Of a stretch of DNA of 22,277 nt, positions 443 to 21,718 are shown piece after piece. Both the position numbers and the translations under genes were made by a program. The notes beneath the pieces are model-generated. The model was given only the letters and a program-made list of their open reading frames with translations. It searched no databases and was not told the origin of the DNA. The DNA comes from a virus (lineage: Duplodnaviria; Heunggongvirae; Uroviricota; Caudoviricetes): positions 1 through 22,277 of IMG/VR virus record IMGVR_UViG_3300044970_001522. One strand, given 5' to 3'. Every line of letters starts with the position of its first letter. Position 1 is the stretch's first letter.

Positions 443-486
443 GGACGGTTCCCCCGCTTTCCCTCACAGAGCAAAAGCGGTATAGT
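443..486 (+). promoter_or_regulatory. Promoter cassette copy 1
   Basis: GGACGGTTCCCCCGC, -35 position TTTCCC (458-463), 17 nt ending AAAGCGG, TATAGT (481-486); ATG 7 nt downstream. Confidence 0.7.
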
Positions 487-529
487 TAAAGTATGGAAAA
501 CACCGCCCCCTCGCTGTGGGATTCTCTGG

Positions 530-886
530 TTGTCCCTCCCGGAGCAAAAATCCCCAGTTCACCCAATCTTCAGCCAAGCTGCTGAGCACTTTCACGTTAC
601 TTTGCGGTTTGGTGTGTTCGAGAATGAGATTCCAGACGGGATCTTAGGGAGAACTTTCACGGCTCGTGCCACTGAAAACTGCTTTGGCGACCGCATTCAT
701 GCCTTACGAGTTGAACTCCCGAGCGGGATCCGGAGTGTTTGCTTGAACAAGAACCCCCACATGACAATTTCGATGCTTCCCGGAGTTCGCCCCGTTGAGT
801 CGAATGTGATGCTTCAATCTCCACTCAGTCTAGAGAAGGTGAATTTTAATCTTTCCCTCATTTGCGAGTTTGTACCCTTTCCCTGA
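530..886 (+). CDS. 2H phosphoesterase (cyclic phosphodiesterase-like); true 5' end uncertain
   Basis: Two HxT motifs (FHVTL, PHMTIS) followed by PGVRPVESN, as in tRNA-ligase CPDase-like/phage 2H proteins; frame is open upstream to 440. Confidence 0.75.
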   Translation: MSLPEQKSPVHPIFSQAAEHFHVTLRFGVFENEIPDGILGRTFTARATENCFGDRIHALRVELPSGIRSVCLNKNPHMTISMLPGVRPVESNVMLQSPLSLEKVNFNLSLICEFVPFP

Positions 887-889
887 CCC

Positions 890-1117
890 ATGAACAACTT
901 CCCTGAGAAAATTGTCTCCTTTAAGGTAGTCCCTCAGAGCGTTTCAGTTTACACCACCCCGGACGACAGTAAAATAACTACTGTTGTAACCGAACATGTA
1001 GTTGCTCTCGACTCTCACGGAAAACTCTGGGTGAGACTACTAATGGGGAACTACGAAGATGAACTTCCATGGAAATGTTTAACCCCTACATCCACCTCGG
1101 CAAACTCTCATGAATGA
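890..1117 (+). CDS. Hypothetical protein, 75 aa
   Basis: ATG start 3 nt after previous stop; overlaps next start. Confidence 0.7.
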   Translation: MNNFPEKIVSFKVVPQSVSVYTTPDDSKITTVVTEHVVALDSHGKLWVRLLMGNYEDELPWKCLTPTSTSANSHE

Positions 1118-1373
1118 ACAACAAGAGTACTACGATGAGCTGGAGCAGTACATGAGAGACCTTGCAGCCGAACTCGGAGTTTCTGTGAGTTGCGCTCAAG
1201 ACGTGTGGTACTTGCGCACTCGATCTCGACACACTCCGACGCTGGAAGCCGAGCTAATTGCACTTCACGCTGCGGGTAGTCCCCCGAACATGTGTGACTT
1301 CGGTGTAACTGATGCCACCCAGGAAAACATTCGGAAAGTTTGTGAAAACGTCGGGAGTCTTCATGGGAACTGA
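1110..1373 (+). CDS. Hypothetical protein, 87 aa
   Basis: ATG start overlapping upstream gene end; same-strand packing. Confidence 0.75.
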   Translation: MNEQQEYYDELEQYMRDLAAELGVSVSCAQDVWYLRTRSRHTPTLEAELIALHAAGSPPNMCDFGVTDATQENIRKVCENVGSLHGN

Positions 1374-1542
1374 AAGAGACGGGGAAGACGCGGAACTGTT
1401 CCGATTTTGGGCACAAGAAATGTGCTCTAACCGCAGACAGGTATCCAACGCTTTAGAGTGGTGCCGAACACCATCCGAAGTTCGAAGCGCACTCTCGGCG
1501 ATTCGTGCGCTGAACAAAGCTTGTCCAAAAAACAACACCTGA
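1363..1542 (+). CDS. Hypothetical protein, 59 aa
   Basis: Internal ATG (1363) of track ORF 1312..1542, overlapping upstream gene end. Confidence 0.6.
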   Translation: MGTERDGEDAELFRFWAQEMCSNRRQVSNALEWCRTPSEVRSALSAIRALNKACPKNNT

Positions 1543-1554
1543 GGGATACCTGTC

Positions 1555-1704
1555 ATGGCGTCAAACGTGAAAGACAACACCGTTGAAGTTCGCTTGCTGA
1601 GTGAGATCCCGTATCAAATTCCCGTAGTGAGAGAGCCCGAGTGGAAGCGAAGCGTCTACAAGCAAATTCAAGCCGAGTTTCGACTCGATCGAGAAAGATG
1701 CTAA
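1555..1704 (+). CDS. Hypothetical protein, 49 aa (not in ORF track)
   Basis: ATG..TAA, MASNVKDNTVEVRLLSEIPYQIPVVREPEWKRSVYKQIQAEFRLDRERC; preceded by GAGGG; fills gap before tRNA-Thr. Confidence 0.6.
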   Translation: MASNVKDNTVEVRLLSEIPYQIPVVREPEWKRSVYKQIQAEFRLDRERC

Positions 1705-1724
1705 GGTAGGGCCGGGGAGAACCC

Positions 1725-1796
1725 ACCCACGTAGCACAGCGGTAGTGCAGCCGTTTCGTAAGCGGCAGGTCGCTGGTTCGAATCCAGTCGTGGGTT
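1725..1796 (+). tRNA. tRNA-Thr(CGU), no encoded CCA
   Basis: Acceptor ACCCACG/CGTGGGT, D-stem GCAC/GTGC, anticodon stem GCCGT/GCGGC with loop TTCGTAA (CGT 1757-1759), T-arm GCTGG-TTCGAAT-CCAGT. Confidence 0.92.
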
Positions 1797-1861
1797 TTGC
1801 CCCCTTGTCCACTTCCCTAAGCCAACCTTGGTTACTACCCTCTAACTCCCGCACAAAACAC

Positions 1862-2181
1862 ATGACCGCACCTGATATTACATCAGTCGAAACCACCGGA
1901 AGCGTTGTAACCCCAGTGACGTATGAGACTGTATACTGTACGAAGTACGCCCTTTCCAAAGGAATTTTAAGGTCACTGGAGAGGCTACGGACCACGGAAA
2001 TTTCTCAGAAAAGCCCTATAAAGCCTACCGTACCCTATTTCTTGGCAGTAGCGACTGGCACCGAAGCTGGGACGAAGCAGTAGTGGACGCGGAGAGACGG
2101 TTAGGTCGGAAGATTGACTCACTGAAAAGGAAAATCGTTGAGTTAAACCAGCTTAAGTTTGTAGAGGTTGACCGACCCTGA
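1862..2181 (+). pseudogene. Phage hypothetical gene split by a -1 frameshift near 1964-1972
   Basis: Frame of ATG 1862 reads ..TKYALSKGIL. The -1 frame (open 1927-2181, no ATG) continues KVTGEA..DWHRSWDEAVVDAERRLGRKIDSLKRKIVELNQLKF. The join resembles a common phage family pattern (KYALTxGI..WHxTxEEA..KIxSL) from memory. Confidence 0.65.
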
Positions 2182-2230
2182 ACCTTGTCTGTGCTGTGGC
2201 TCAAGGTTGCCCTTTCCACCTGAACAAGAA

Positions 2231-2293
2231 CGGGTAACCGGTTGCCGTAGGGCGGTTTCCCGGCTTGTTTCTGCGGAGCAGAAGCGGTATACT
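2231..2293 (+). promoter_or_regulatory. Promoter cassette copy 2 (full length, with spacer hairpin)
   Basis: CGGGTAACCG (2231), GGGCGGTTTCCCGGC (2250), TTGTTT (2265), 17 nt, TATACT (2288). Confidence 0.85.
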
Positions 2294-2319
2294 TACTTTA
2301 GTGCAAACCCTCAAGTCCA

Positions 2320-2484
2320 ATGACCCCCCTCGAAGCCTTTGAAACAATCTACAGCAGGTTGAACTTTCTGGAACGTGATTGTTTGTATGGCGAAGAAGCT
2401 GAGGTTGTTCGAGAGGCACTAGACTCAATGGCCATACTTTGTGGTGGTTATTTTCCACCCGAACCCGACTCCGAATCCTACTAA
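2320..2484 (+). CDS. Hypothetical protein, 54 aa (not in ORF track)
   Basis: ATG..TAA, MTPLEAFETIYSRLNFLERDCLYGEEAEVVREALDSMAILCGGYFPPEPDSESY; first ORF after promoter copy 2. Confidence 0.65.
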   Translation: MTPLEAFETIYSRLNFLERDCLYGEEAEVVREALDSMAILCGGYFPPEPDSESY

Positions 2485-2540
2485 TGTTGTTAAGTAAGCA
2501 CAGTGAAAGAGCTGACCCCCCAAACCGAACTTGGTGTGAA

Positions 2541-2993
2541 ATGAGTAAGGAAACTGATGATCAGAGCTTAGCACCACGTATACTAGCAATGTGCAAGAGG
2601 CGTGGTTGGTCACTGCACTGGTCGGCTCGTGGCGCATACCTACACCTTGAGTCATCAGAACTAATTGAGGCGCTTCGTGGAAAGCGTGGTGACCCGAAGT
2701 CGGAAGCCGCAGATGTTCTGCTTGTTTTGATGTCAATCACAGAGGCTAATGGGATCTCCTGGTCAGACGTTGTTGCGCAAGCTACAGCAACCTGTGCACG
2801 GCTGGAGACTTGCGACCCGTACCCTGGAGAAGAGAGACAAGAGATTGAACGCGCCATGATTCAAACCCCTCACACTCGCTCTACCCCGTTTCGAATGCCT
2901 GCACAAAATACAGTCTGGACCCTTGTTACTGCGTTTCAAACTATACTCTTGTGTTGGGAAATTGCGGTGGCCTTAGACCTTTTTCCCCAATAA
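2541..2993 (+). CDS. MazG-like nucleotide pyrophosphohydrolase
   Basis: All-alpha NTP-PPase ExxE..ExxD signature: LESSELIEA..KSEAADVLLVLM; start moved to ATG 2541 within track ORF 2439..2993. Confidence 0.7.
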   Translation: MSKETDDQSLAPRILAMCKRRGWSLHWSARGAYLHLESSELIEALRGKRGDPKSEAADVLLVLMSITEANGISWSDVVAQATATCARLETCDPYPGEERQEIERAMIQTPHTRSTPFRMPAQNTVWTLVTAFQTILLCWEIAVALDLFPQ

Positions 2994-3143
2994 AATGCTA
3001 GCATACATCCCTGTTTTAGACAGGGAGCCATTTTGTTATCCTCATTCGGGGGCAGACACTCCGGTGTTCCTACCTCGAGTAGCTTGGATTTCGGCTCGGT
3101 CTGGCTCTCAACCTGGTTTCTGGACGCACTGCGCATACCACTA

Positions 3144-4040
3144 ATGACTCTAACTACAAGAACCGCCCTACAACGCCTGATACAACTTGAAGACCGCAAA
3201 GGACCTGCCCCGGCAATCGCAAATGCCTGGACCGACGCTATCGCCGATGCTCGCGCTGCCCTAAGGGCAGAACCAGAAGAGGAGCAGTTGCGCCTAGTCA
3301 AGCAAGGTATTGCGTTCTGCTTTGACAAGTTTCGGCCTGGCCCCTTTGAAGCCCGTTACATTGACCCGTGGGTTGTAGCTGACGTGTTCGGGCCAGAAGC
3401 GTTGGCCGAGTTCGGCGGGTCCATACCTTCACCGAAGCAGGGGCAGAGTGACGCCGTCTTGGAAGGCAGCTTCCGAAACTGGTACGAAATTACCCACGGC
3501 TCCCCCTATTTTAGATCCATTCCCCTTTGCGATGCAATTCGTTGGGTCCAGCACCTGCTACAGCGCAGTGCCCAATCAGAGCCGGGGCCGAGCCTAGCCG
3601 ATGTTAGACAACTGTGCGCAGACAACGAAATTTCAATGGTTGTTGACTCAAACGACTTTGACACCGTTGTTGTCGCAATTCTAGAGATCGTTCGCACCGC
3701 ACTTGCCCGTAGGGTAGCTTTACCACCCCTGATCACGGGAGTGGACCAGTGGTATCCCGACTTCGCAGACTGGCTTGAGCGTGAGATGCCAGAAGGCACA
3801 GTTATAGGTGATCCGTTGTGGTGGGCTTCGAAGATTGCTGACCGAATCATCTGCACCCCCGCCCTGCTCCAGCAGGTCTCCACCCAGAAAGCGCCGAAAC
3901 GGGTAGAGGGGGTGAGGGAGTTAGTGGAAGAACTGGAACTGATGGCCAAGCGTGCCGCAGATGCTCTTCAGTTTGGTGATGCTCACTTTCTCTTCCGCAC
4001 CGTCGCCCTGCTCCAACAACTACAAACCGAACAGCCATGA
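3144..4040 (+). CDS. Mosaic phage hypothetical protein (ARAAL/EPGP module family)
   Basis: ATG 3144 inside track ORF 3033..4040; modules AIADARAALRAEPE and EPGPSLADV..IVRTALAR. Confidence 0.75.
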   Translation: MTLTTRTALQRLIQLEDRKGPAPAIANAWTDAIADARAALRAEPEEEQLRLVKQGIAFCFDKFRPGPFEARYIDPWVVADVFGPEALAEFGGSIPSPKQGQSDAVLEGSFRNWYEITHGSPYFRSIPLCDAIRWVQHLLQRSAQSEPGPSLADVRQLCADNEISMVVDSNDFDTVVVAILEIVRTALARRVALPPLITGVDQWYPDFADWLEREMPEGTVIGDPLWWASKIADRIICTPALLQQVSTQKAPKRVEGVRELVEELELMAKRAADALQFGDAHFLFRTVALLQQLQTEQP

Positions 4041-4732
4041 CAACATCAAATGACTGGGCAAAAGCACTTACGAGCTTTGTCGATGAGATTGGAGGCGATG
4101 GCCCTTCTCTTTGGCAGTGGGCCGGAATTACTCCGACTCCAGAAAAAGTTGTGGACTACCTTCGAGATCAAGTCCATTATCTTATAGCGCTGTACACGCA
4201 CCCTATGCCTATCGCTACCCGCCCCCTCACGGTTGATGATCTTGCGGATATAATGCGGGGTGACACACTTAACCCAATTACCGCTGGTTTTACGGTAGAA
4301 GACCTTGCTCGTCATCTGCTAACGCACCCTGCTACTGCACCGTTGCTTAATTCCGCACTACACACACACTCTGGTACACCTGCCTTAGAAGAAACAGACC
4401 GGCTCGCAGTTGACCAGTTTGCCGCTGCAATGAAACTTAAACTTTCCCGAAAGAGCAAAGAAGGCAAGCAAGGGTGGAAAGAAGCATCCGCTGAGCACCT
4501 GTCTCGTCTTCTATGCGAACACATTCGCAAAGGGGACCCCGTAGATGTTGCAAACTTTGCCATGATGCTACATCAGAATGGTCAAAGCATTTTACCGGAT
4601 TGCACACCCATGGTAGACGTGGGCGCCTTGATTCATACTCTTACTCGTGCTGCGAACTTAATACAGGGGCAGATGGAGAGGATAGCCGAACTTGAGGCGC
4701 AAAATGTTGAACTTGGACGGTTAGGTTGGTAG
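4037..4732 (+). CDS. Phage hypothetical protein with KGDPVDVANFAMM domain
   Basis: ATGA overlap with upstream stop; LAVDQFAAAMKLKL..GW..HIRKGDPVDVANFAMML is a recurring phage motif. Confidence 0.8.
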   Translation: MTTSNDWAKALTSFVDEIGGDGPSLWQWAGITPTPEKVVDYLRDQVHYLIALYTHPMPIATRPLTVDDLADIMRGDTLNPITAGFTVEDLARHLLTHPATAPLLNSALHTHSGTPALEETDRLAVDQFAAAMKLKLSRKSKEGKQGWKEASAEHLSRLLCEHIRKGDPVDVANFAMMLHQNGQSILPDCTPMVDVGALIHTLTRAANLIQGQMERIAELEAQNVELGRLGW

Positions 4733-4877
4733 CTAGCGCACAATGACCCTGGGGTTACGAGTTTACTTTAACCGAGTGCTACCAACACTAAGGGGTGTGA
4801 AATCACCCTTTAAACGAATGTTCTCTGGGCGTACCACCGGAAATTCTACATCCGTTTTCGACACTCAGTTCTAGTCT

Positions 4878-6554: not shown

Positions 6555-6573
6555 TACTTGTTGTACCTTGACT

Positions 6574-6617
6574 AGGGGTTTCCCCGCCTTGCTTTCTTGG
6601 GGGTCACACGATATGAT
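6574..6617 (+). promoter_or_regulatory. Promoter cassette copy 3
   Basis: AGGGGTTTCCCCGCC, TTGCTT (6589), 17 nt, TATGAT (6612). Confidence 0.7.
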
Positions 6618-6745
6618 TATACCACGAGCCCAGTACCCCCTTTTCTTTCCGCCCCTGCACAAGGAGCCCACGTATATGCCCAACCAAAGCATCCGAGACC
6701 TACAGGATTCCTTAAATAAACCTGACATAACGTTTTGGAATAGAC

Positions 6746-7402: not shown

Positions 7403-8043
7403 GTTATAACTTTCGTAAGCTTTGCACAAGGCTGCTCGCAGCTTGCAATTCTTACTTGTTCTTTACAGACGCTGAGAAAACCACTGCGTCCCAAATGGAG
7501 GAGCGACTGGAGGGGGTCCTGAAAGAGGCTTCCCTTGCACTGAGCACCCTTGTTTCAGAAGACCCCACTTACATTCCCTCAGGCCAGGGTCCGGAGTCCC
7601 GTTTGACGTCTGAGAATCTGGCCTGGGTGGACGAGAAGCTGAAGGAGCCGGGCTGGGCCAGGCAATTTCTGATCTCTGCCGGCATTCTAGATTCCGACGG
7701 TCACTGGAATCGTTCTTACTGGCCTGACGACGGCGAAGCCGGTAACACTTTAGGTTATTACATGGACCACCCTGAGTTCTACTGCGACCTAAAAGAGGAC
7801 GTTGTTGTGCAGAGTGTTTATTCTGGGGGACAAGAAACCGATCAGGATGTATTTGAAGAGCAAAGTAACAAACCCACACGCTCAGAAATTCTGAGTTGGA
7901 TAGAAGACCGATCAGCTTGGGGCTCAGACGACTACCTTGGCCGAGTGGCTCTTATAGTAGAAGAAGCCCTGGCATACTGGTCCCCTAAGTCTAGAAGGGG
8001 GGCGGTTTCCCCTCCTCGTTTTGCGGAGGAAAAGCCGCTATAA
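7399..8043 (+). CDS. Mosaic phage hypothetical protein, related to the upstream gene
   Basis: NFRKLCTRLL N-terminus; KPTRSEIL..IVEEALAYW module; C-terminal 14 aa encoded by promoter cassette. Confidence 0.8.
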   Translation: MSYNFRKLCTRLLAACNSYLFFTDAEKTTASQMEERLEGVLKEASLALSTLVSEDPTYIPSGQGPESRLTSENLAWVDEKLKEPGWARQFLISAGILDSDGHWNRSYWPDDGEAGNTLGYYMDHPEFYCDLKEDVVVQSVYSGGQETDQDVFEEQSNKPTRSEILSWIEDRSAWGSDDYLGRVALIVEEALAYWSPKSRRGAVSPPRFAEEKPL

Positions 8044-8044
8044 T
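8000..8044 (+). promoter_or_regulatory. Promoter cassette copy 4 (inside 3' end of CDS 7399..8043)
   Basis: GGGCGGTTTCCCCTCC, TCGTTT (8016), 17 nt, TATAAT (8039). Confidence 0.8.
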
Positions 8045-8067
8045 AAAGGAGACAGAATAGAGACCTC

Positions 8068-8438: not shown

Positions 8439-8474
8439 GTTCGTTCCCTTTATATTTGTGAAACTGTGAAGCTC

Positions 8475-9077: not shown

Positions 9078-9536
9078 ATGACCATTCAAACAAGACAAGC
9101 AGTTTTTGAAACCAACAGTTCAAGCACTCACTCACTCAGTATCTCTTCAAGTTCCACAGATCTCCTTGATACTTTGCCCTTGAACGAACAGGGGGAAGTG
9201 GTCCTCAATGGGGGCCAGTTTGGCTGGGAAGTGGAAGACTACTCCGATGCGAGCACTAAGGCGAGTTACGCGGCCATTTACGTTTCCGAGTGGTCCGGGG
9301 AAAAGAGTGCGGAGTTCAAGGAAGTTCTTGACACAGTGATCAAGCAGCAAACGGGTTGCTCAAACGTTGTATACGATTTATCTACAGACTGGTCTCACCC
9401 ACGGGAAACATCGTACATCGACCACCAGTCTGTTGAAGGGGGTCAGCTAGACTACTTGTTCGAAGACCCAGAACTTTTGCGACAGTTTATCTTCAACCCT
9501 CGCAGTGTCCTTCACACCGACAATGACAACTACTGA
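9078..9536 (+). CDS. Uncharacterised protein with N-terminal RxxVFETNSSSTHS motif
   Basis: MTIQTRQAVFETNSSSTHSLSI; overlaps start of radical SAM gene. Confidence 0.85.
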   Translation: MTIQTRQAVFETNSSSTHSLSISSSSTDLLDTLPLNEQGEVVLNGGQFGWEVEDYSDASTKASYAAIYVSEWSGEKSAEFKEVLDTVIKQQTGCSNVVYDLSTDWSHPRETSYIDHQSVEGGQLDYLFEDPELLRQFIFNPRSVLHTDNDNY

Positions 9537-10431
9537 GACAGTCCTTCACGCGTACAAAAACGGTAACTGCAACGTTACTTTGTGGTCTGGCGGCACCAAG
9601 ACTCGAGAGACTCTGGACGCAGACCACCCTTGGGCAGAACACCCGGAAAGCATTGACATTAAGGTTACAAACTTTTGCGACCTGGCGTGCCCTTACTGCC
9701 ACGAAAACTCCACTCTCGAAGGAAAGCACGGGGATCTGAACCGCTTACTTACAGTTTTGGAGCCTTTACCTCCAGGGGTGGAGCTGGCGATCGGGGGAGG
9801 AAACCCGCTATCTCACCCTGACCTTATACCGTTCCTTCGCAAAGTTAAGACCAAAGGGTTGGTGGCTAATTTAACCGTAAACGAGAGACACCTGGAACCC
9901 TACAAGTTTCTTTTGAGCTACTTGCGACGGAAAGATCTAATAAAAGGTATTGGTGTTTCCGTTACAGGTTCGAACCTACCTCTGGTAAAACAATTTCTGG
10001 AAAACAATCCGCACACCGTGTTTCATGTGATTGCTGGAGTGCACTCGCCCAGAGTTCTATCCGACCTAAGCTCCCTCCCAAACAGCAAAACTCTTGTGCT
10101 CGGGTACAAAACCTTTGGCCGTGGTATCCAGTTCTACGGTAACAAGACCAAGAAGCTTCTTTCCGAATGGTACCGGGCCATCCCAACTTTCCTTGGAAAG
10201 ACACACTTGTCGTTCGACAACCTTGCTGTGGAACAACTTAACATCAAGAGATTGCTCACGAACGAGGGTTGGTCAAAGTTTTACATGGGGGACGACGGTA
10301 GCTTCACAATGTACATCGACGCTGTCGAAGGAACGTACGCAAAAACAAGTAGGAGCAGCGAACGCACCTTGTTCGACAGCACTGACTTAATCTCTTACTT
10401 TCAAAGCTTGACTCCGAAGAGGTTCGGTTAA
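9523..10431 (+). CDS. Radical SAM protein
   Basis: CxxxCxxC motif CDLACPYC after ESIDIKVTN; GGGNP (GGE-like) motif; ATG 9523 overlaps upstream gene by 14 nt. Confidence 0.93.
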   Translation: MTTTETVLHAYKNGNCNVTLWSGGTKTRETLDADHPWAEHPESIDIKVTNFCDLACPYCHENSTLEGKHGDLNRLLTVLEPLPPGVELAIGGGNPLSHPDLIPFLRKVKTKGLVANLTVNERHLEPYKFLLSYLRRKDLIKGIGVSVTGSNLPLVKQFLENNPHTVFHVIAGVHSPRVLSDLSSLPNSKTLVLGYKTFGRGIQFYGNKTKKLLSEWYRAIPTFLGKTHLSFDNLAVEQLNIKRLLTNEGWSKFYMGDDGSFTMYIDAVEGTYAKTSRSSERTLFDSTDLISYFQSLTPKRFG

Positions 10432-10459
10432 CCCCTCTCCCTGGGGTGGTTTTCCTGGC
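10425..10459 (+). repeat. Decayed/partial promoter cassette
   Basis: CGGTTAACCC (10425) and GGGTGGTTTTCC (10444) at the canonical 19-nt offset, but no -35/-10 at the expected positions. Confidence 0.55.
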
Positions 10460-11172: not shown

Positions 11173-11523
11173 ATGATCACACTCCGTACAACCTTTAACG
11201 ACCTCTTAAGCAAACTTCAAGGGCTTAGCCTCAAGCAAACTGGTTACTGGGTTGACGACCTTCCGGAAGACATCTACGAAAACTTCTTCTACGACTCCAA
11301 CTACGAAGTTGTGGCTAGGGACTTAGACCTTGATAGGCACAGGTGGTACGAAATTTCCACAGAAGTGATCAAGATTCACGGGTCTTTCCTTGGAATACGC
11401 CAAGTTACCCACATGAAGAACGAAAACGACAGTGTCGGAGACGCTAGCTTCGTGTATCAATTCTTTGAAATGCGGGAGAAAACAGTGACTTCCTACGAAA
11501 AGGTGCCTAACGCTGCTGAGTAA
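11173..11523 (+). CDS. Hypothetical protein, 116 aa
   Basis: ATG start, same-strand packing, acidic/aromatic composition. Confidence 0.8.
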   Translation: MITLRTTFNDLLSKLQGLSLKQTGYWVDDLPEDIYENFFYDSNYEVVARDLDLDRHRWYEISTEVIKIHGSFLGIRQVTHMKNENDSVGDASFVYQFFEMREKTVTSYEKVPNAAE

Positions 11524-11646
11524 GTCCGACGAGCTCTACGTCTTAACCTTACCTGGTTGGTGTGAGTCCACTGGAGTTCAGTCCGAGATCTCTTTCGCAC
11601 AGCTGTTGGGGGTGCCTCTTTCTCTACACATTCCTGCGCCCCTAGG

Positions 11647-11709
11647 CGGTTAGCCGGTTGCTCTAGGGCGGTTTCCCCGCTTGTTTTCTCGAAGAGAAAG
11701 CGGTATAAT
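11647..11709 (+). promoter_or_regulatory. Promoter cassette copy 5 (full length, with spacer hairpin), upstream of tsf
   Basis: CGGTTAGCCG (11647), GGGCGGTTTCCCCGC (11666), TTGTTT (11681), 17 nt, TATAAT (11704). Confidence 0.9.
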
Positions 11710-11746
11710 ACATATAACCTGAAAAGTCCCCTCAAACCTGAGTAAC

Positions 11747-12355
11747 ATGGCTTCCATCCCCCCTACAATCCTACAAGTTAAGTCCCTGCGAGAAAAGACC
11801 GGTGCTGGCCTGATTCTCTGCAAAGAAGCACTCATTTTTTCTAGCAGTGACGAAGCCGGTGCGATCACGTGGTTGCGGCAGAGAGGAGTGGCCTTAGCCG
11901 ATGGTAAGGTTGGTCGGAGCGCACGAGAAGGTACTGTGGGCAGCTACATTCACACTGGCGGTAAGGTTGGAGTCCTTATCGAGGTCAACTGCGAAACAGA
12001 TTTTGTGGCCAAATCGGAGCCTTTTCAGGATCTCGTACGCAATTTGGCCATGCAAGTTGCAGCGTGCCCCTCTGTGTGCTACGTGTCGATCTTTGACATT
12101 CCTGAGGAGACTCTCCTTGAGGAGACACGGATTGAGTCGGGAAAAGCAGACCTTTCGAGTAAACCTGAGGCAATTCGAAACAAGATCGTTGAGGGTCGTG
12201 TGGCAAAGCGATTCAGAGAGCTGTCTCTCATGGACCAGCCCTACATCAAAGACAACTCAATGAGTATCGAAACATACGTGGAGAACTTCGCTGCGGTAGT
12301 TGGCGAAAACATCGTTGTGAAGCGATTCGTACGTTTTGTCCTCGGCAGCTCCTGA
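11747..12355 (+). CDS. tsf: Translation elongation factor Ts, short (cyanobacterial-type)
   Basis: VKSLREKTGAG..CKEAL, WLRQRG, EG.VGSYIHTGG, EVNCETDFVA, AMQVAACP, DQPYIKD, GENIVVKRFVRFVLG. Confidence 0.97.
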   Translation: MASIPPTILQVKSLREKTGAGLILCKEALIFSSSDEAGAITWLRQRGVALADGKVGRSAREGTVGSYIHTGGKVGVLIEVNCETDFVAKSEPFQDLVRNLAMQVAACPSVCYVSIFDIPEETLLEETRIESGKADLSSKPEAIRNKIVEGRVAKRFRELSLMDQPYIKDNSMSIETYVENFAAVVGENIVVKRFVRFVLGSS

Positions 12356-12369: not shown

Positions 12370-12636
12370 ATGTGGTGCCCAGCCCTTTTACCATTGTGGA
12401 TGCGAATGCCCCTGCCTCCGAGGGGCAAAAGACTCGAAGAGCTTCGAGCTGAGACCCTCGCCCTGAAGGAGGAAGAACTTTCCCTGAAGGAGGAAGAACT
12501 TTCTTTTCGAGAAGACACACTGAGGCTAAGAACCGAAGAGCTGAGGCTAAGAGCCCAGACCCTGGCCCTTAAAGAGCTGGGGCTTAAAATTGAGTTAAAC
12601 GAGTTAAACAAGTTGAAACAACCCCGAAAACAATGA
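12370..12636 (+). CDS. Heptad-repeat coiled-coil protein, 88 aa
   Basis: LALKEEE-LSLKEEE-LSFREDT-LRLRTEE-LRLRAQT-LALKELG heptads. Confidence 0.7.
   Translation: MWCPALLPLWMRMPLPPRGKRLEELRAETLALKEEELSLKEEELSFREDTLRLRTEELRLRAQTLALKELGLKIELNELNKLKQPRKQ
12461..12502 (+). repeat. 21-nt exact tandem duplication
   Basis: CCCTGAAGGAGGAAGAACTTT x2 (12461-12481, 12482-12502); a second 21-nt-period pair CTGAGGCTAAGA at 12520 and 12541. Confidence 0.95.
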
Positions 12637-12859: not shown

Positions 12860-12903
12860 GCGGGGTTCCCTGTCTTGTTCACGTTACAAACACTCGCTAC
12901 ACT
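12860..12903 (+). promoter_or_regulatory. Promoter cassette copy 6
   Basis: GCGGGGTTCCCTGTC, TTGTTC (12875), 17 nt, TACACT (12898); CGATTAACCC at 12847. Confidence 0.75.
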
Positions 12904-12939
12904 TAGTTATCACACTCCGAAAACAACCTGAGCTTAAGC

Positions 12940-13239: not shown

Positions 13240-14376
13240 ATGACAATTACACGAAAAGAAATTGAAGACGGGATGATCCTGTTTTGCAAGTCAGGCAGCC
13301 ACGCCTATGGTCTCAACACCGAGATGTCTGACTTGGACTTTAAGGGCATCTGTGTGGCTCCACAGCGGTTTTACACCACTCTCGAAACATTTGAGCAAAA
13401 GGATAAAGGTTGGGCAGAGCACGGGAAGGAAACTATCGAAACTAGATTCCCTGAGTTAGATAACTCGGATTCAGTGGTGTACGGCATTCGCAGGTACCTG
13501 AGCTTGTTGCGGTCGCAGAACCCTAACATTTTAGAGATGCTCTGGCAAACTCCAGACAGTTATCTGTACCTAGACTTTCTAGGGCAGTCTCTAATTGACA
13601 ACCGAAAGAAGTTAATTTCCAAAAGAATCTCTGGCACATTCGTTCAGTACGCAAGGTCCCAGATCAAGAAAATGGAGACTCACCGCAAGTGGCTGTTAGA
13701 CCCTCCGACACAGCGACCGACATGGGAAGACTACGGGGTTTCTTCGCCGAGCTTAACCCCCTCTCAAATCGAGTCATTCATTGAGTACTTGTACCTGCTG
13801 ATTAAAGACAGAATCGAATACTACCAACCTTCAGTCGAGCTGTACGAGTTACTCAACGACCGAGTTGATTGGAAAGGAATTTTGAAGCAGAGTGTCTTAC
13901 CGGAAGAGTGCTTCGACGAGACGCAGAAAATCACGAGGGCAAGTTACGAGTACATGGCCCTTCTTCACTCAAGCCAGCAGTACCGGGCCGACTTAAAAAG
14001 ATGGAACAACTACCAAGATTGGCTAGTCAATCGGAACGTAAAACGGTCCGAAATCGAGCGAGCTTGCGGGTACGACGGGAAGAACGCCAGCCACTGTGTT
14101 CGACTTATGAAAATGGCCATTGAGGGAATGCGAACCGGAGAGCTTCTTGTGAATAGAAAGTTGGTTGGAGACGCAGATTTTCTTCTGGACATTAAGTACG
14201 GCAGGATTACGTATGACGAACTAAGCACAATTGTAACTCAGCTCTTTAAGGAGGCTGAGCACGTGGTGAAGAACGAGTGCGTCTTGCCGAACACGGTAGA
14301 TGACCAACTCATCAACACTCTCTGTGCTGAGACTGTGGAAAAATTTCAAAGTCTCGGTTGTATTGAGAACCGGTGA
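13240..14376 (+). CDS. Pol-beta superfamily nucleotidyltransferase (RlaP / T4 NrdC.11-like)
   Basis: GSHAYGLNTEMSDLD (GS..DxD) motif, QNPNILEML, and YDGKNASHCVRL C-terminal motif typical of phage members. Confidence 0.88.
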   Translation: MTITRKEIEDGMILFCKSGSHAYGLNTEMSDLDFKGICVAPQRFYTTLETFEQKDKGWAEHGKETIETRFPELDNSDSVVYGIRRYLSLLRSQNPNILEMLWQTPDSYLYLDFLGQSLIDNRKKLISKRISGTFVQYARSQIKKMETHRKWLLDPPTQRPTWEDYGVSSPSLTPSQIESFIEYLYLLIKDRIEYYQPSVELYELLNDRVDWKGILKQSVLPEECFDETQKITRASYEYMALLHSSQQYRADLKRWNNYQDWLVNRNVKRSEIERACGYDGKNASHCVRLMKMAIEGMRTGELLVNRKLVGDADFLLDIKYGRITYDELSTIVTQLFKEAEHVVKNECVLPNTVDDQLINTLCAETVEKFQSLGCIENR

Positions 14377-14885: not shown

Positions 14886-14914
14886 CTCCTGCAATTTCTT
14901 GGTTAGACCAGAGG

Positions 14915-14977
14915 CGGTTAACCGCTTGCTCCGGGGCGGTTTCCCGGCTTGTTTCTGCGTAGCATAAACGGTATAGT
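14915..14977 (+). promoter_or_regulatory. Promoter cassette copy 7 (full length, with spacer hairpin)
   Basis: Perfect palindrome GCGGTTAACCGC (14914-14925), GGGCGGTTTCCCGGC (14934), TTGTTT (14949), 17 nt, TATAGT (14972); near-identical to copy 2. Confidence 0.9.
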
Positions 14978-15030
14978 ATTTACATGAGCAGCGGTGCTCA
15001 GACACTTAGCCCCCTAACTCAGGAGACCCA

Positions 15031-15440: not shown

Positions 15441-15449
15441 CCCTGCCCC

Positions 15450-15897: not shown

Positions 15898-15936
15898 CTA
15901 CACTAAAAACACTCTCCGGTAACTCCCGCAAAGTCC

Positions 15937-16107: not shown

Positions 16108-16119
16108 ACTGTTAACACA

Positions 16120-17113: not shown

Positions 17114-17167
17114 GACTCCGACACGTTAACCCATCAGAACCAGGCAGGGGCCTAAATCAGTAGGAAA

Positions 17168-17863
17168 ATGAAGATCCAATCAAAATTCAAGGACTACTAC
17201 GACTATGTGGAGTATTTGTACTCTCAAGAAGGTGGTGACCCCTCGAACACTTACGTTCGCAAAGAGCTGTCACAGCCTGACCAACCGGACTCTTCGAATG
17301 TGTACGTAAACGTCAACGAAACCGAACGCATACCAGAAGTACCCACCAGAAGAGACTACTACGGGGAGATCCTTCCTTGGGTGTTTAAGTGGTGCTCAGT
17401 TTGCGGAGAGCTGTACCTTCTTGTCTCAAAGATAAATTTTAATCCTGATTGGAGACTAATTACAGAAGACCACCCATCCTTGCGCATGGTACACAGCAGC
17501 CACCGAAGATGGTTCGAAGAAATTAGGATGGACGAAATATGGGGTGTTCCGAACAAAAGTTGTGTGGATATCTCAAGACAACTTCAGGTTCCCGTATTCG
17601 TGATAGAACCCACTCCGAGGCTCAGCGGACTTAAAAAGTCGCCTCAAGTGGCCGTAAGTCGAGAGATCCCAAACCTTGGGAAGTTGGGATTCGCCTCAGT
17701 AATCCCGGCTGAGCAAATGTACCAAAATATATCAATGTTTATGGCCTCGCTGAGGGATAGCCCAGACAGTGTTCCGCCTGTGAGTGTATCGGACAAGGAT
17801 CGACTCGTGCAGAAGGGGTTTGATGCTAAGATATCATTTCGAGGAAAGTTTCCCCGTGCTTAG
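17168..17863 (+). CDS. Phage hypothetical protein (MKI.SKFKDYYD family)
   Basis: MKIQSKFKDYYDYV..; LGFASVIPAEQMYQNISMF..SDKDRLVQKGFD..SFR recurring phage pattern. Confidence 0.85.
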   Translation: MKIQSKFKDYYDYVEYLYSQEGGDPSNTYVRKELSQPDQPDSSNVYVNVNETERIPEVPTRRDYYGEILPWVFKWCSVCGELYLLVSKINFNPDWRLITEDHPSLRMVHSSHRRWFEEIRMDEIWGVPNKSCVDISRQLQVPVFVIEPTPRLSGLKKSPQVAVSREIPNLGKLGFASVIPAEQMYQNISMFMASLRDSPDSVPPVSVSDKDRLVQKGFDAKISFRGKFPRA

Positions 17864-17952
17864 CCCTTACCCATGGTGCGAGACTCTAACCCTTACCTTG
17901 GGTCTTATTTCCACCCAAGCAAGCCCGCTCAAACAAGAACCATACAAGGAAA

Positions 17953-18834
17953 ATGACAACTTTCGACAAATGCCTCGGAGCCTTTATTGGCCTTGCGATC
18001 GGTGACGCGATGGGTGCGCCAGTGGAGTTCTCTCCACCGGGGACATTCGAGCCAGTCACAGGCTACCGAGAAGGAGGACCCTTTAATCTGCCGTCAGGCT
18101 ACTGGACGGACGACACATCGCAGGCTGTTTGCCTTGCCGAGTCTTTTATTCATTGCAATGGGCAGATCAATCTTGGAGACCAAATGCGTCGGTACTCCAA
18201 CTGGTACGAGTACGGAAGGAACAGCTCAACAGGTGTCTGTTTTGACATCGGCAATGGAACACTCCGTGCAATTGAGACTTTTCTCGTTGAGGGGTCTTTG
18301 GGTCTCTATCCGGAGAATTCGAAAGGAAACGGGTCTTTGATGCGTTTGTCCCCCGTTTCTATTGTTTACCACAAATCGAGTGAGGGGGACGCTGTAGCAG
18401 CTTGTGACGCGTCATCCTCAACAACCCATGGCCACTTGGCATCCGACCTATGCAAAGATCTCGGTCGTTTGCTGCACCGATACTTGAATGGTACGGGGGA
18501 GAAACCTGAAGTCTCGCCGGAGGGAATTGAAAATTCCGGGTACGCACCGAAGTCCTTAAACGCCGCACTCTACCATTTCGGGTCAACTTCGTCCTTTGAA
18601 GAGGCCATCCTGCAGGCTGTGAACTACGGGGACGACTCAGACACGGTTGCTGCGATCACGGGACAGCTAGCAGGTGCTTACTACGGTTACAAGGCTATTC
18701 CTAGGCGATGGATTTCAGGGTTGCACGACAGTGAAAGACTTTTGCTCATAGCAAGCACTTTGTACGACCTTTCGTTTGGGGCGGTTTCCCCCCCTTGTTT
18801 CTACTCTGAAATAACGTATAATACCCTTACTTAA
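17953..18834 (+). CDS. ADP-ribosylglycohydrolase (DraG/ARH family)
   Basis: GLAIGDAMGAPVEF, WTDDT, GNGSLMRLSP, GDDSDTVAAITGQLAGAYYG. Confidence 0.95.
   Translation: MTTFDKCLGAFIGLAIGDAMGAPVEFSPPGTFEPVTGYREGGPFNLPSGYWTDDTSQAVCLAESFIHCNGQINLGDQMRRYSNWYEYGRNSSTGVCFDIGNGTLRAIETFLVEGSLGLYPENSKGNGSLMRLSPVSIVYHKSSEGDAVAACDASSSTTHGHLASDLCKDLGRLLHRYLNGTGEKPEVSPEGIENSGYAPKSLNAALYHFGSTSSFEEAILQAVNYGDDSDTVAAITGQLAGAYYGYKAIPRRWISGLHDSERLLLIASTLYDLSFGAVSPPCFYSEITYNTLT
18779..18822 (+). promoter_or_regulatory. Promoter cassette copy 8 (inside 3' end of ARH gene)
   Basis: GGGCGGTTTCCCCCCC, TTGTTT (18795), 16 nt, TATAAT (18817). Confidence 0.8.
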
Positions 18835-18850
18835 GCTCTCGAAACCGCAA

Positions 18851-19258
18851 ATGCATTTCTACGCGATCACACGCCGCGACCTTGACCCTGCTCAGCAAGC
18901 TATTCAGGCGGCTCACGCACAAGTTGAGTTTGCGAGAGTACACCCTGATTCTTTAGCCCAAGACCACCCGCCTTTCGTATGGCTATCGGCTGAGAACAAG
19001 TGGGAGCTTTTGCAACTCTCGTGTGTTCTTCGGAGTTACGGACTCTCGGTGGTAGAATTTCACGATCCAGACTACAAGGGGTTTGACCCCAGTGCCCTAG
19101 CGTGCCTGGTCGACGAAGACCACCGTTATTTGCTCTCTGAGTTCCCTTTATGGGTTCCCCTCAGGGCTACGCCGGTTGCAATCAAGGGGCAAACGGTAGC
19201 CTCACATTTTTTCTCACTACTGCGGGAAGGCAGCTTGGAAAACCACGCGGAGGGGTAA
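18851..19258 (+). CDS. Peptidyl-tRNA hydrolase type 2 (Pth2)-like protein
   Basis: YAITRRDL..QQAIQAAHA N-terminal motif, then wL..ENKWEL and F.DPD..T/SALA pattern as in phage Pth2-like proteins. Confidence 0.65.
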   Translation: MHFYAITRRDLDPAQQAIQAAHAQVEFARVHPDSLAQDHPPFVWLSAENKWELLQLSCVLRSYGLSVVEFHDPDYKGFDPSALACLVDEDHRYLLSEFPLWVPLRATPVAIKGQTVASHFFSLLREGSLENHAEG

Positions 19259-19267
19259 AGTACCTTA

Positions 19268-20488
19268 GTGCTTGCTTCGGTTGTACGAATGTACGGAGAA
19301 ATTTCCCCCGATACCCTGGCGTTAATACACGACTTCACACGTTGTGTAAAACCGGACGGCGGGGTGTATGGTACAGCAGGACAGTGCCGCAAGGGGGTGG
19401 AGTCCGCAAAGGAAACTCGCAGCATTCGACGAGAGTCTGTACTTAAGAGTGTAGAACTTTACGAAAAGAATAGCTCTGACGCTCTAAACAAGAATCTAAG
19501 GACTCTTGAGGGAATGCTTTTGTCAAAGCCAGGGTACCGCACACCCCTCACAGAGAGTGCCCTAACCGCAATGCGATACCTTCGCCTAAAGACTCACTTG
19601 GCGAAGAAGGCAGAGCAAACACAACAAAAGGGTGCCCTTCAGGATCAATACGAAGAATTAGTGAGAAACTCACCGAAGTACACGCAAACACCCGGATCGA
19701 GCAAACCTTTACCGAAAGCCACGGTTGAGAAAGAGGTTGAGCTTCTTGAAAAGGAACTTGAAGCACTGAAGAAAAGAGTCCGAGCAATAGGAGAGCCTAC
19801 CGACGACGTGTCAAGAGAGAAGCTTTTACACCTGCAAAAGGAAGGTATGGAGCTCGGTCGAACACTTTCGAGTGCTCGAAAGGGCACCTTGTTACCGCCG
19901 ATTCTCACTTCTGTGTACGAACGACAAGGTTTTCATGCTCGACCGGAAGTTGTTGCAACACGATCGGAACTGGAATCAAGAAAAGATATAGCCCGGAACC
20001 CCGACGGAAGGCCAATTGTGGCTTATCGCGGCGTAAGTTCAAGTGAGTTTTCATTGCAGTTCAAGGGTGGTGGTCCCGAAGGAGACAAGCACTTTCCTGG
20101 TGGAGGGATTTACGGGAGTGGGAGTTACTCTGCTTCTTCCCCTTTGTCTGGTAAGGTTAAGCATGACAAGTGGGCCCAAGAGACAGCGAAAGACTATACA
20201 GGTGACTGGAGAAACGCCACAACCATGGTTTCAGCCTTTGCATTCCGGTCTGACGCTCGACTCGTACAGTTTGAGGGGGACGGGAAGCAGTTTAAGCAGT
20301 GGGAAGAAGAAACATTGAAAAAAGCAAGAGAGACGACGGGCTACGACCATCACGATGTTGGGTCCGCCGCTGCATCTCTTGGAGTGCATGCGTATAGAGT
20401 TCCACAGACCGATGGCCAAGACTTCTGGGTTGTTCTCAACCGTGGAGCAATCATCGTAGCGAACGACCCTGAATTAACACCGGACTAA
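19268..20488 (+). CDS. Multi-domain protein: DFTRCxxPDG..YGT.G.CRKG motif, helical middle, C-terminal ADP-ribosyltransferase-like domain (tentative)
   Basis: C-terminal IVAYRGV..GGGIYGSGSYSAS..LGVHAY.V..DFWVVLNRGAIIV resembles ART-fold strands; catalytic Glu not evident; alternative start ATG 19289. Confidence 0.5.
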   Translation: MLASVVRMYGEISPDTLALIHDFTRCVKPDGGVYGTAGQCRKGVESAKETRSIRRESVLKSVELYEKNSSDALNKNLRTLEGMLLSKPGYRTPLTESALTAMRYLRLKTHLAKKAEQTQQKGALQDQYEELVRNSPKYTQTPGSSKPLPKATVEKEVELLEKELEALKKRVRAIGEPTDDVSREKLLHLQKEGMELGRTLSSARKGTLLPPILTSVYERQGFHARPEVVATRSELESRKDIARNPDGRPIVAYRGVSSSEFSLQFKGGGPEGDKHFPGGGIYGSGSYSASSPLSGKVKHDKWAQETAKDYTGDWRNATTMVSAFAFRSDARLVQFEGDGKQFKQWEEETLKKARETTGYDHHDVGSAAASLGVHAYRVPQTDGQDFWVVLNRGAIIVANDPELTPD

Positions 20489-20489
20489 A

Positions 20490-20645
20490 ATGAACCTTAA
20501 CGACCCCACAACCAGTCGCACTCTCGCGGCACTCATTCAGAATATTGCAGCTGATTCCCGCGAGCAATTTCGACAGGATGCTGCGCAGGCCCCAGACATG
20601 AAAACCTTTCTGAAAGGGTTGAACCGATACAAATCGACTCTGTGA
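20490..20645 (+). CDS. Hypothetical protein, 51 aa (not in ORF track)
   Basis: ATG 1 nt after upstream stop; MNLNDPTTSRTLAALIQNIAADSREQFRQDAAQAPDMKTFLKGLNRYKSTL. Confidence 0.7.
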   Translation: MNLNDPTTSRTLAALIQNIAADSREQFRQDAAQAPDMKTFLKGLNRYKSTL

Positions 20646-20680
20646 GACTTTCTTGCAGTGAGACTGCTTATGGCGAAGCA

Positions 20681-20830
20681 ATGGAAAAGCTCTTCACAGC
20701 TCAGTGGAACATTCCTCAGGCCGCCACCGCACTCGGGAAGCCAGTGAGCGAAGAAAGCTGGGACGAAACGAAAGAGTTATTCCGTGAATATTGTTTGGAA
20801 CACACACCTATCGCCTTCAACGCCGGGTAG
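20681..20830 (+). CDS. Small phage hypothetical protein (LF.A.WN.PQAA family)
   Basis: ATG 20681 within track ORF 20642..20830. Confidence 0.65.
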   Translation: MEKLFTAQWNIPQAATALGKPVSEESWDETKELFREYCLEHTPIAFNAG

Positions 20831-20844
20831 TTTACCAATTCGAG

Positions 20845-20911
20845 AAAGCGATATACTGTAAAAGTCCTGAGACGTAAATACGTCGCCCGTTATGAGTGGG
20901 TTCCCTGTCTT
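20845..20911 (+). promoter_or_regulatory. Partial cassette pieces upstream of the lysin genes
   Basis: AAAGCGATATACT (20845-20857) matches the cassette -10 end; GGGTTCCCTGTCTT (20898-20911) is identical to part of copy 6. Confidence 0.4.
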
Positions 20912-21033
20912 CGCAGACAAGGTAGGACTCGGAGCCTAACATTGCGCTCTTAAATAAAATGTGCCGTGGGAAAACGCACCTTGAAACAGGTGAGTGACCG
21001 TTTCCTATACGGATGCCGAATTCTCTTCAATAA

Positions 21034-21672
21034 ATGCTCAACCTTGCTACACTTGTGGCCGTCTCCCTCGTTGGAACTGCTGCAACCCCTTTCAGCAACA
21101 CCGTTGCCGCTAGGGACATTGCCCCAGAAACAACTTTCGAATCGCGCTTCATTTGCACAGGCTGCGGTCCAATCAATTCTCTGCCGACTCACGCTTACAA
21201 ACTCACCCCAGAGCGTCGAGCCCTTTTAAACACCATTCGCTTCGCTGAAGGAACTTGGAAAGACGGCCATAATGATGGCTACCGAGTTGTATTTGGGGGT
21301 GGAACGGTGTCCACGCTAGACCGACATCCCAACCAAGTGCGCTACTCGCCGCGTTATGCTAGCGCAGCAGCGGGGGCCTACCAGTTTCTGCCAAGTACTT
21401 GGTATGAGGCAGCCCGAAAGCTCAACCTGAGCGATTTCGGTCCCACTAACCAGGATCAGGCTGCCTTGTACTTAATCGAGCGACGCGACGCTTTGCACCT
21501 CGCTGACTCTGGGAAGATTACCCCAACTCTACTCGCAAGACTCGCACCAGAATGGGCTTCCCTTCCAACTTACAATGGAAGCAGTTACTACGATCAGCCG
21601 GTCAAAACCTACGACAACCTTCGCCTCTTCTACGAAAACAACTTGGCGATGCTGCGCCAGGAGGAAGGTTGA
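21034..21672 (+). CDS. Lambda-lysozyme-like / GH104 lytic transglycosylase with N-terminal signal sequence
   Basis: RALLNTIRFAEGT (catalytic Glu), YRVVFGG, SAAAGAYQFLPSTW, FGPTNQDQAALYLI, LAPEWASLP; hydrophobic N-terminus. Confidence 0.9.
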   Translation: MLNLATLVAVSLVGTAATPFSNTVAARDIAPETTFESRFICTGCGPINSLPTHAYKLTPERRALLNTIRFAEGTWKDGHNDGYRVVFGGGTVSTLDRHPNQVRYSPRYASAAAGAYQFLPSTWYEAARKLNLSDFGPTNQDQAALYLIERRDALHLADSGKITPTLLARLAPEWASLPTYNGSSYYDQPVKTYDNLRLFYENNLAMLRQEEG

Positions 21673-21673
21673 T

Positions 21674-21718
21674 GGGCGGTTTCCCGAACTTTACCTTGGG
21701 CCTTTTACGAGCTAAGCT
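21674..21718 (+). promoter_or_regulatory. Promoter cassette copy 9, upstream of rlpA-like gene
   Basis: GGGCGGTTTCCCGAAC, TTTACC (21690), 17 nt, TAAGCT (21713). Confidence 0.65.

Follow-up and report, generated by a model that had tools for sequence, protein, structure and literature searches.

Class-II activator sites are centred at −41.5 for CRP and FNR, at −42 for lambda cI at PRM and at about −43.5 for Mor at the Pm promoter of phage Mu. Promoter-early stem-loops (PeSLs) are regulatory cassettes of the T4-type phages RB49/phi1, PST/T4 and nt-1/KVP40 (Arbiol et al. 2010, PMC2839356; Comeau et al. 2014, PMC4122927), in which a stem-loop is located between the −35 and −10 hexamers (PMC2839356). 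Here we describe a cassette that resembles both systems, in a window of 22,277 bases that forms the start of a 189,900-base IMG/VR virus contig (IMGVR_UViG_3300044970_001522; 49.5% G+C; CheckV completeness 67%). The cassette consists of a GC-rich 12-bp box followed by a sigma70-like −35/−10 core, and it occurs nine times in the window. The source phage is an uncultured lake myovirus of about 280 kb, and its nearest cultured relative is Synechococcus phage S-CBWM1 (MG450654.1), the best cultured match of its large terminase, with 57.6% identity.

Like PeSLs, the cassette is present in dozens of scattered intergenic copies of about 60-100 bp each, has a −35/N17/−10 core of sigma70-like type, mostly carries its stem-loop between the two hexamers, and is concentrated in a hyperplastic region rich in small genes of unknown function. 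Close relatives show indels with a copy at each border and the crossover inside the cassette, as in PeSLs. Upstream of the −35, PeSLs contain an AT-rich tract, whereas the source phage has the conserved GC-rich box, often doubled at a distance of 22 bp. The 3′ end of a PeSL holds a Shine-Dalgarno sequence and a start codon, whereas the genes behind the cassette are leaderless or have leaders of 15-50 nt. PeSLs belong to T4-type myoviruses, while the source phage combines a Mu-type portal with a pol-gamma-like polymerase and is related to S-CBWM1. The enrichment of breakpoints in its cassettes is modest, unlike that of PeSLs, and termination or attenuation and excised mini-circles are described for PeSLs, whereas the sequence of the cassette is ambiguous in this respect, as its spacer stem has no U-tract behind it and most of its boxes are unable to fold. 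The analogy with PeSLs, already drawn in an earlier reading of the window made without database searches (the sequence-only reading), is apt also for the stem-loop between the hexamers. By this analogy the cassette is PeSL-like, with an added GC-rich dyad at a class-II position that is common to a cultured cyanophage.

Class-II promoters share with the cassette a dyad of about 16 bp that is centred 42-43 nt upstream of the inferred start and abuts the −35, and in some copies a second site two helical turns farther upstream. In contrast to such promoters, the −35 of the source-phage cassette retains TTG. The box is used at about 80 promoters of one genome, whereas class-II sites are used at few, and the source phage has no Mor-family protein, unlike Mu with its Mor-dependent promoter.

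Promoter core and genomic distribution

In the window, the box GGGCGGTTTCCC occurs in six exact copies, all on the + strand (2250, 8000, 11666, 14934, 18779 and 21674). Allowing up to two mismatches raises the count to 10, where 2.0 would be expected, and 0 of 100 shuffles reach this number. The nine copies follow one plan, in which 3-4 nt separate the box from a TTG-type hexamer and a spacer of 17 nt (16 at 18779) leads to TAnnnT, so that the nine-copy family and its spacing stand as the sequence-only reading described them. An exact-pattern scan of IMG/VR finds 46 stretches with the composite motif, in about 25 contigs, and yields 129 distinct cores, of which 61 differ mutually at more than 4 of 26 positions and form a non-redundant set.

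The box extends from about −50 to −39 and is followed by 3-4 G/C bases up to the −35 (TTGnnn), a 17-nt spacer, a G at −14 and a −10 of the form TATAnT. When the 61 non-redundant copies are aligned on the −10, the first two positions of the −35 are T in 51 and 53 copies, and the G at −14, two bases before the hexamer and the key base of an extended −10, is present in 54. The −10 itself reads T-A-T-A-n-T, with the third-position T and the fourth-position A in 50 copies each. The seventh base past the hexamer is a purine in 55 of 61 and is usually preceded by a pyrimidine.

The distance from the core to the gene is short. In 41 of the 42 contig cassettes, a start codon opening a reading frame (ORF) of at least 40 codons lies 6-73 nt past the −10, mostly at 21-55; the exception is the copy with its −10 at 6612, where the start codon is 128 nt away. 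An ATG or GTG stands exactly 6 nt past the −10 in 10 of these 41 cassettes, two of them being GTG with an ATG slightly downstream. At these genes transcription is predicted to begin on the opening base of the start codon itself, which implies that their mRNAs would be leaderless. The cassettes 481 and 58301 have an ATG at the leaderless position with only a short ORF. No Shine-Dalgarno-like sequence was seen in the leaders, as judged by eye with no scan run. A conserved string, ATGGAAAAC(A/G), is found exactly 6 nt past the −10 at window position 493, at contig positions 58313, 67435, 69937 and 96438 and in relatives. It opens a long ORF in some of these places (a paralog family starting MEN...), and may mark either a family of leaderless paralogs or the conserved 5′ end of an RNA.

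A motif scan of the whole genome had been proposed by the sequence-only reading, and the contig contains 18 exact boxes, 36 boxes with at most one mismatch (32 of these on the + strand) and about 42 full cassettes. All of the full cassettes lie on the + strand, which is the coding strand, and all fall between 0 and 98.5 kb. They end just ahead of the gyrase-like and polymerase genes, and the structural block (~106-175 kb) contains none. The copies extend over all 98 kb of non-structural sequence, in which tRNA, nucleotide and DNA-modification genes are found. The earlier assignment to an early or host-takeover regulon therefore holds only in part, and this coverage is better described as pre-late, that is, early plus middle. 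A relative of 277,244 bases (G001; 98% complete), most of whose collinear blocks are 88-97% identical to the contig, has 78 boxes (about 70-78 cassette copies) in arms that track gene orientation.

All cassettes of the contig face one way, while those of the 277-kb relative form divergent arms. Contig positions 1-74,051 match the relative in reverse (121,589-45,600), and positions 74,051-189,566 match it forward (143,642-264,711). The switch at 74051 is either an inversion or translocation of about 75 kb, or an assembly join.

The −35/−10 geometry, the G at −14, the purine seven bases past the −10, the leaderless starts and the intergenic placement on the coding strand support the assignment of the cassettes as sigma70-type promoters, in agreement with the core proposed by the sequence-only reading. 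It is quite probable that they are the pre-late promoters of the phage and are read by a bacterial-type holoenzyme, likely containing the primary sigma factor of the host.

The GC-rich box and the spacer dyad

Across 133 distinct boxes, positions 4-8 (CGGTT) and 11 are near-invariant, an invariance that is partly built in by the choice of copies at no more than two mismatches. The 12-bp box appears to be the conserved half of a 16-bp dyad, GGGCGG-N4-CCGCCC, whose promoter-proximal arm has decayed. A complete right arm with 6/6 complementarity is present in 7 of the 133 boxes, and 103 of them (77%) are unable to form a stem of more than 3 bp. An element maintained for structure only would keep its pairing and let its sequence drift, and the pattern of the box is the opposite.

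Many boxes are accompanied by a further half-site. Of 140 distinct cassettes, drawn from five contigs, 33 have a second GGGCGGTT half-site in direct orientation 21-23 nt upstream of the box (26 at 22 nt), and 13 have an inverted half-site 14-15 nt upstream of it; other offsets are practically absent. The 22-bp spacing of the tandem boxes corresponds to two helical turns. The palindrome CGGTTAACCG of the sequence-only reading is the centre of this second box, GGGCGGTTAACC(G/C), 22 bp upstream of the first. A dimeric sequence-specific binder is favoured because the sequence is kept while the pairing is lost, and because the tandem phasing is strict.

S-CBWM1 contains the intact form of the dyad. 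Its coding strand has at least 13 intergenic sites where GGGCGG-(T/G)AAA-CCGCCC abuts TTTACA-N17 followed by TAAGCT, TAAAGT or TATAAT. The two phages have in common the GGGCGG/CCGCCC arms, the distance to the −35, the 17-nt spacer, a TAnnnT −10 and the location of the cassettes on the coding strand of the non-structural region, in S-CBWM1 also inside the tRNA array. S-CBWM1 has a perfect dyad with a centre that in most cases reads (T/G)AAA, inverted relative to the TTT(C/A) of the source phage, although each phage shows both orientations. Its −35 (TTTACA) and its −10, mostly TAAGCT or TAAAGT, are unlike those of the source phage. S-CBWM1 also has a second dyad of variable sequence (CTGAC-N3/4-GTCAG and variants) that covers the −10 and start site, whereas that of the source phage lies in the spacer. 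Examples in S-CBWM1 are at 11210-11235, 17585-17605 and 23075-23095, and a dyad over the −10 and start is the other position reported for PeSL stem-loops.

In both phages the centre of the GC-rich dyad is 7-8 nt ahead of the −35, at about −42 to −43 from the start. As the sequence-only reading had noted, the box is located where an UP element or a class-II activator site would be. We infer that it is a protein-binding site at the class-II activator position and not a terminator, because 77% of the boxes in this lineage are unable to form a hairpin and the arms are the same in a phage with a terminase only 57.6% identical.

Searches for the protein or for a host regulon were negative. There is no activator of the Mor/C family in the source phage, the 277-kb relative or S-CBWM1. 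Across an even sample of 301 cyanobacterial genomes, GGGCGG-N4-CCGCCC shows no enrichment relative to its reversed control, an unrelated repeat in one genome excepted, and there is thus no sign of a host regulon. The small proteins common to the source phage and S-CBWM1 have no recognisable DNA-binding domain, one being without a Pfam match and four being judged by eye. The proposal of a phage-encoded activator or modified polymerase was accordingly not borne out by a Mor-family protein, yet the contig encodes two sigma70-family proteins. Tentatively, and with rather less than even confidence, the box may be the operator of a dedicated dimeric factor, phage-encoded or virion-delivered, that tags about 80 promoters, times the pre-late programme and is conserved as far as S-CBWM1.

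The spacer between the hexamers holds a dyad of its own. A perfect stem of at least 5 bp is present in 59 of 129 cores against 5% of random 25-mers, and in 48 of these 59 the loop centre lies 11.5-12.5 nt ahead of the −10. When the 61 representatives are aligned without gaps, Watson-Crick pairs make up 53% in the register whose centre is 12.0 nt ahead of the −10, compared with 42% (sd 1.7%) after shuffling of partners, and the four adjacent registers have no excess. The pair −15/−9 is GC in 10 copies, TA in 9 and CG in 13, while −16/−8 and −17/−7 are TA or CG. In copies with a three-base loop, the closing pair is C-G in 32 of 32, and the loop reads GNA in 11 (about 6% expected) and is otherwise variable. 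The stem is followed by GGTATAnT with no U-tract. Its mismatches have no G-U bias on the sense strand (TG 11, CA 13), which gives no support to an RNA-level reading. The spacer dyad appears to be under selection for symmetry, as an operator or as a structure-forming stem-loop of the PeSL kind, and could act either as DNA (operator, cruciform) or as RNA (attenuator).

Recombination, late transcription and rival explanations

Breakpoints were taken from blastn of the contig against four relatives, with 86 distinct breakpoints in 0-100 kb and with crude ORF calls to define intergenic DNA. Ten of the 86 fall inside cassettes, which make up 3.15% of the sequence, a 3.7-fold excess over a uniform distribution (binomial p=4e-4). 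When only intergenic breaks are considered, cassettes hold 9 of 29 where 15% would be expected, a 2-fold excess relative to other intergenic DNA (p=0.02). Against the 277-kb relative alone, 56 of 67 breaks are in the cassette-bearing 0-100 kb. At contig position 37,201, this relative has 1.8 kb more, which carries one 354-codon ORF and has a cassette on both sides. The single contig cassette at this point has the left flank of one of these copies and the right part of the other, with the switch in the box. The cassettes thus act as joints in the manner of PeSLs, yet for a minority of rearrangements. Recombination between them would occasionally shift gene modules, because about 60 bp are common to dozens of copies. 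The breakpoint comparison proposed by the sequence-only reading finds the expected enrichment, though a modest one that concerns 12% of breaks; its view of cassettes as borders of exchangeable modules is supported in part, by this enrichment and by clean one-gene indels.

A different motif, GGGTAAAGT, occurs eight times on the + strand of the contig and never on the − strand, and is conserved in the 277-kb relative. One copy lies in the window (19253-19261) and seven are confined to 138-167 kb (138680, 140402, 142119, 143319, 144721, 156514 and 167133), most of them shortly ahead of a likely start codon. It is likely a late-promoter motif without a −35, perhaps read by a phage sigma factor. 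Two phage proteins of the sigma70 family, of 204 and 242 aa, match Sigma70 region 2 only, above the curated cut-off, and are encoded on the + strand at contig positions 177904-178518 and 183385-184113. The first of these genes is preceded by a cassette-like promoter at 177,890, with dyads GGCGG-ATAC-CCGCC and GCCGG-GATA-CCGGC, whose arms are changed yet still symmetric. The simplest programme would consist of the host holoenzyme acting at the cassettes for early and middle genes, followed by the phage sigma factor or factors for late genes.

Three other explanations of the cassette bear on its box, its core and its spacer dyad. The box and spacer dyad could be RNA stem-loops of a PeSL-type terminator-promoter, which stop read-through before the promoter restarts transcription, with no dedicated DNA-binding protein. 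A PeSL has a polyG/polyC stem-loop between or over the hexamers, and one that was tested terminated as well as rrnB T1 (PMC2839356). A simple terminator scan marks the boxes at 7997, 11666 and 14931, and boxes often begin a few nucleotides past an upstream stop codon, as with the stop at 21672 and the box at 21674. This explanation is nevertheless unlikely, as most boxes lack a stem of more than 3 bp though the left arm and the 'loop' are almost invariant, and the arm sequence is unchanged in the distant S-CBWM1. The spacer stem runs into GGTATAnT and not into a U-tract, the mismatches of the spacer stem have no G-U bias, and the strict 22-bp phasing of tandem boxes is left unexplained. The cassette might instead be a middle promoter of a phage sigma70-family protein, with the box or the CGG before the −10 as specificity determinant. 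The two sigma genes and the unusual conservation of the box, of C at −15 and of G at −14 are in its favour, but the hexamers are those of an ordinary primary sigma factor, a cassette-like promoter precedes one of the sigma genes, and GGGTAAAGT in the structural region, having no −35, is a more natural target. The first genes also need to be transcribed before any phage sigma exists, and we consider this explanation improbable.

Promoters of coliphage N4 are hairpins with a stem of 5-7 bp and a 3-nt loop that are extruded from supercoiled DNA, and transcription starts 11 nt past the loop centre. A comparable hairpin promoter for a single-subunit or virion RNA polymerase of the phage would account for the fixed position of the spacer dyad, its mostly 3-nt loop, the uniform C-G closing pair and the excess of GNA loops. 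The contig has no giant ORF of the size of a virion polymerase, however, and its largest ORFs belong to tail-fibre or tape-measure families (1590, 1207 and 1159 aa) or contain a tail-sheath domain (1241 aa). A search for the T7-type RNA polymerase family found nothing, with controls likewise giving no response. The loop sequences vary, half of the cassettes are without a good stem, and an N4-type start would coincide with the initial T of TATAnT. Neither the conserved −10 nor the purine at the seventh base nor the leaderless start codons would then be explained, and an N4-type promoter is very improbable here.

In the preferred explanation, that of pre-late promoters with a protein-bound box, a bacterial-type RNA polymerase holoenzyme would read each copy, most likely with the primary sigma of the host. 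Transcription would start at the purine 7 nt past the −10, and several mRNAs would be leaderless. A sequence-specific dimeric protein, more likely encoded by the phage than by the host, would bind the box and mark or tune the phage promoters, a quarter of which have a second box two helical turns farther upstream. The spacer dyad would serve as an operator or as a stem-loop of the PeSL kind, and recombination between cassettes would occasionally add or remove gene modules. Several observations weigh against parts of this explanation. The −35 has just 3 of the 6 bases of TTGACA, and for this reason a generic promoter scan detects no cassette copy. No box-binding protein emerged from the Mor-family search, the cyanobacterial dyad scan or the inspection of shared small proteins, and the S-CBWM1 dyad, with its perfect GC stem of 6 bp, its 4-nt loop and the TTT behind it, is compatible with a terminator. 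A good spacer dyad is present in only about half of the copies, and about 88% of breaks lie away from cassettes. The copies within and between these close genomes are also not independent, and clustering lessened this dependence and did not abolish it.

Copies in the window and gene content

The nine copies, all on the + strand, differ in how much of the cassette they retain. Six have exact boxes, that at 443 has 2 mismatches, that at 6574 has 3 and that at 12860 has 4 or more; the degenerate copies at 6574 and 12860 retain the arrangement of −35, 17 nt and −10. Sites resembling CGGTTAACCG at 2231, 10425, 11647 and 14915 are each exactly 19 nt ahead of the box start, as had been described for three full copies and a decayed one. 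Cassette 1 (425..493) has an inverted half-site at 425-436, a box GGACGGTTCCCC at 443-454, a −35 TTTCCC at 458-463 and a −10 TATAGT at 481-486, with an ATG at 493, 6 nt past the −10. Cassette 2 (2228..2300) has an upstream box at 2228-2239, whose core is the palindrome at 2231, a box at 2250-2261, a −35 TTGTTT at 2265-2270, a spacer dyad TTCTGC-GGA-GCAGAA at 2269-2283 and a −10 TATACT at 2288-2293. Cassette 3 (6573..6624) consists of the weak box TAGGGGTTTCCC with its 3 mismatches, a −35 TTGCTT at 6589-6594 and a −10 TATGAT at 6612-6617; a synteny break with relatives begins beside it, at 6562. In cassette 4 (8000..8051), the box at 8000-8011 is followed by a −35 TCGTTT at 8016-8021 and a −10 TATAAT at 8039-8044, with an ATG 23 nt past the −10. 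The decayed copy (10422..10455, +) contains a remnant of the upstream box (CGGTTAACCC at 10425) and a box remnant GGGTGGTTTTCC at 10444-10455, without −35 and −10, and sits within a homology gap relative to the 277-kb genome (10410-10557).

Cassette 5 (11644..11716) has an upstream box at 11644-11655, a box at 11666-11677, a −35 TTGTTT at 11681-11686, a spacer dyad TTTTCTC-GAA-GAGAAA and a −10 TATAAT at 11704-11709, and would drive the EF-Ts-like gene at 11747. Cassette 6 (12860..12910) has the degenerate box GCGGGGTTCCCT, a −35 TTGTTC at 12875-12880 and a −10 TACACT at 12898-12903. Cassette 7 (14912..14984) has an upstream box at 14912-14923 with a perfect CGGTTAACCG at 14915, a box at 14934-14945, a −35 TTGTTT at 14949-14954 and a −10 TATAGT at 14972-14977, and ends at a predicted leaderless ATG (14984) that opens a 59-codon ORF. 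Cassettes 2 and 7 are 92% identical across 36 nt, and when compared with the reference copy at 11644 over the 67-nt family they show 75% and 79% identity; the near-identity stated for about 60 bp was therefore somewhat exaggerated. Cassette 8 (18779..18829) has a box at 18779-18790, a −35 TTGTTT at 18795-18800, the 16-nt spacer and a −10 TATAAT at 18817-18822, and an ATG 28 nt past the −10 opens a 135-codon ORF. Cassette 9 (21674..21725) has a box at 21674-21685, which begins 2 nt past the stop of ORF 21034-21672, a −35 TTTACC at 21690-21695 and a −10 TAAGCT at 21713-21718. Its hexamers are of the types dominant in S-CBWM1, and its −10 reads TATACT in a relative.

The neighbouring genes include an ORF at 11747-12355 (+), directly behind cassette 5, that encodes 202 aa and matches EF_TS in Pfam (E=4.6e-31); translation elongation factor Ts is an unusual gene in a phage. 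Putatively cassette-driven genes at 13240-14376, 17953-18834 and 9505-10431 code for a nucleotidyltransferase of the RlaP type (RNA repair), an ADP-ribosylglycohydrolase (E=6e-61) and a radical SAM protein. The ORF at 12370-12636 contains a perfect 21-nt tandem duplication at 12461-12502 (CCCTGAAGGAGGAAGAACTTT twice), which adds seven in-frame codons. Three tRNA genes are located at the start of the contig, Arg-TCG (39-112), Arg-CCT (185-258) and Thr-CGT (1725-1796). Their transcription is probably also driven by cassettes, because S-CBWM1 has the same cassette type within its array of more than 30 tRNAs.

The large ORFs of the contig encode a Mu-type portal, a tail-sheath domain, baseplate J, tail fibres, a tape measure and the large terminase, together with a ribonucleotide reductase and a family-A DNA polymerase that has a mitochondrial-type exonuclease domain (pol-gamma-like). 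Since cyanophages are the only known source of pol-gamma-like polymerases (PMC7156551), the host is likely, though not proven to be, a picocyanobacterium. A megablast of the window against GenBank phages gave no match. A scan of 185,579 prokaryote genomes for a host or host regulon, with the pattern box+TTG+N20+TAnnnT, gave 48 single hits, at chance level apart from one verrucomicrobial stretch. Verrucomicrobiota were rejected as a clue to the host, the 14 hits there being one conserved stretch that resembles coding sequence and recurs across species, and not promoters.

In conclusion, the cassettes provide a promoter map for a large and nearly unannotated phage lineage, with about 80 transcription units, a division into pre-late and late genes, and leaderless genes. 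The idea of PeSLs, regulatory cassettes that double as recombination joints, is extended by them from T4-type phages to an unrelated group of cyanophages. If the tentative assignment of the box as an operator is true, the box would act from the class-II position as a genome-wide tag that tells phage promoters from those of the host. The presence of the same cassette in a cultured pair, S-CBWM1 and Synechococcus sp. CBW1002, makes the reader of the GC-rich box testable at the bench.

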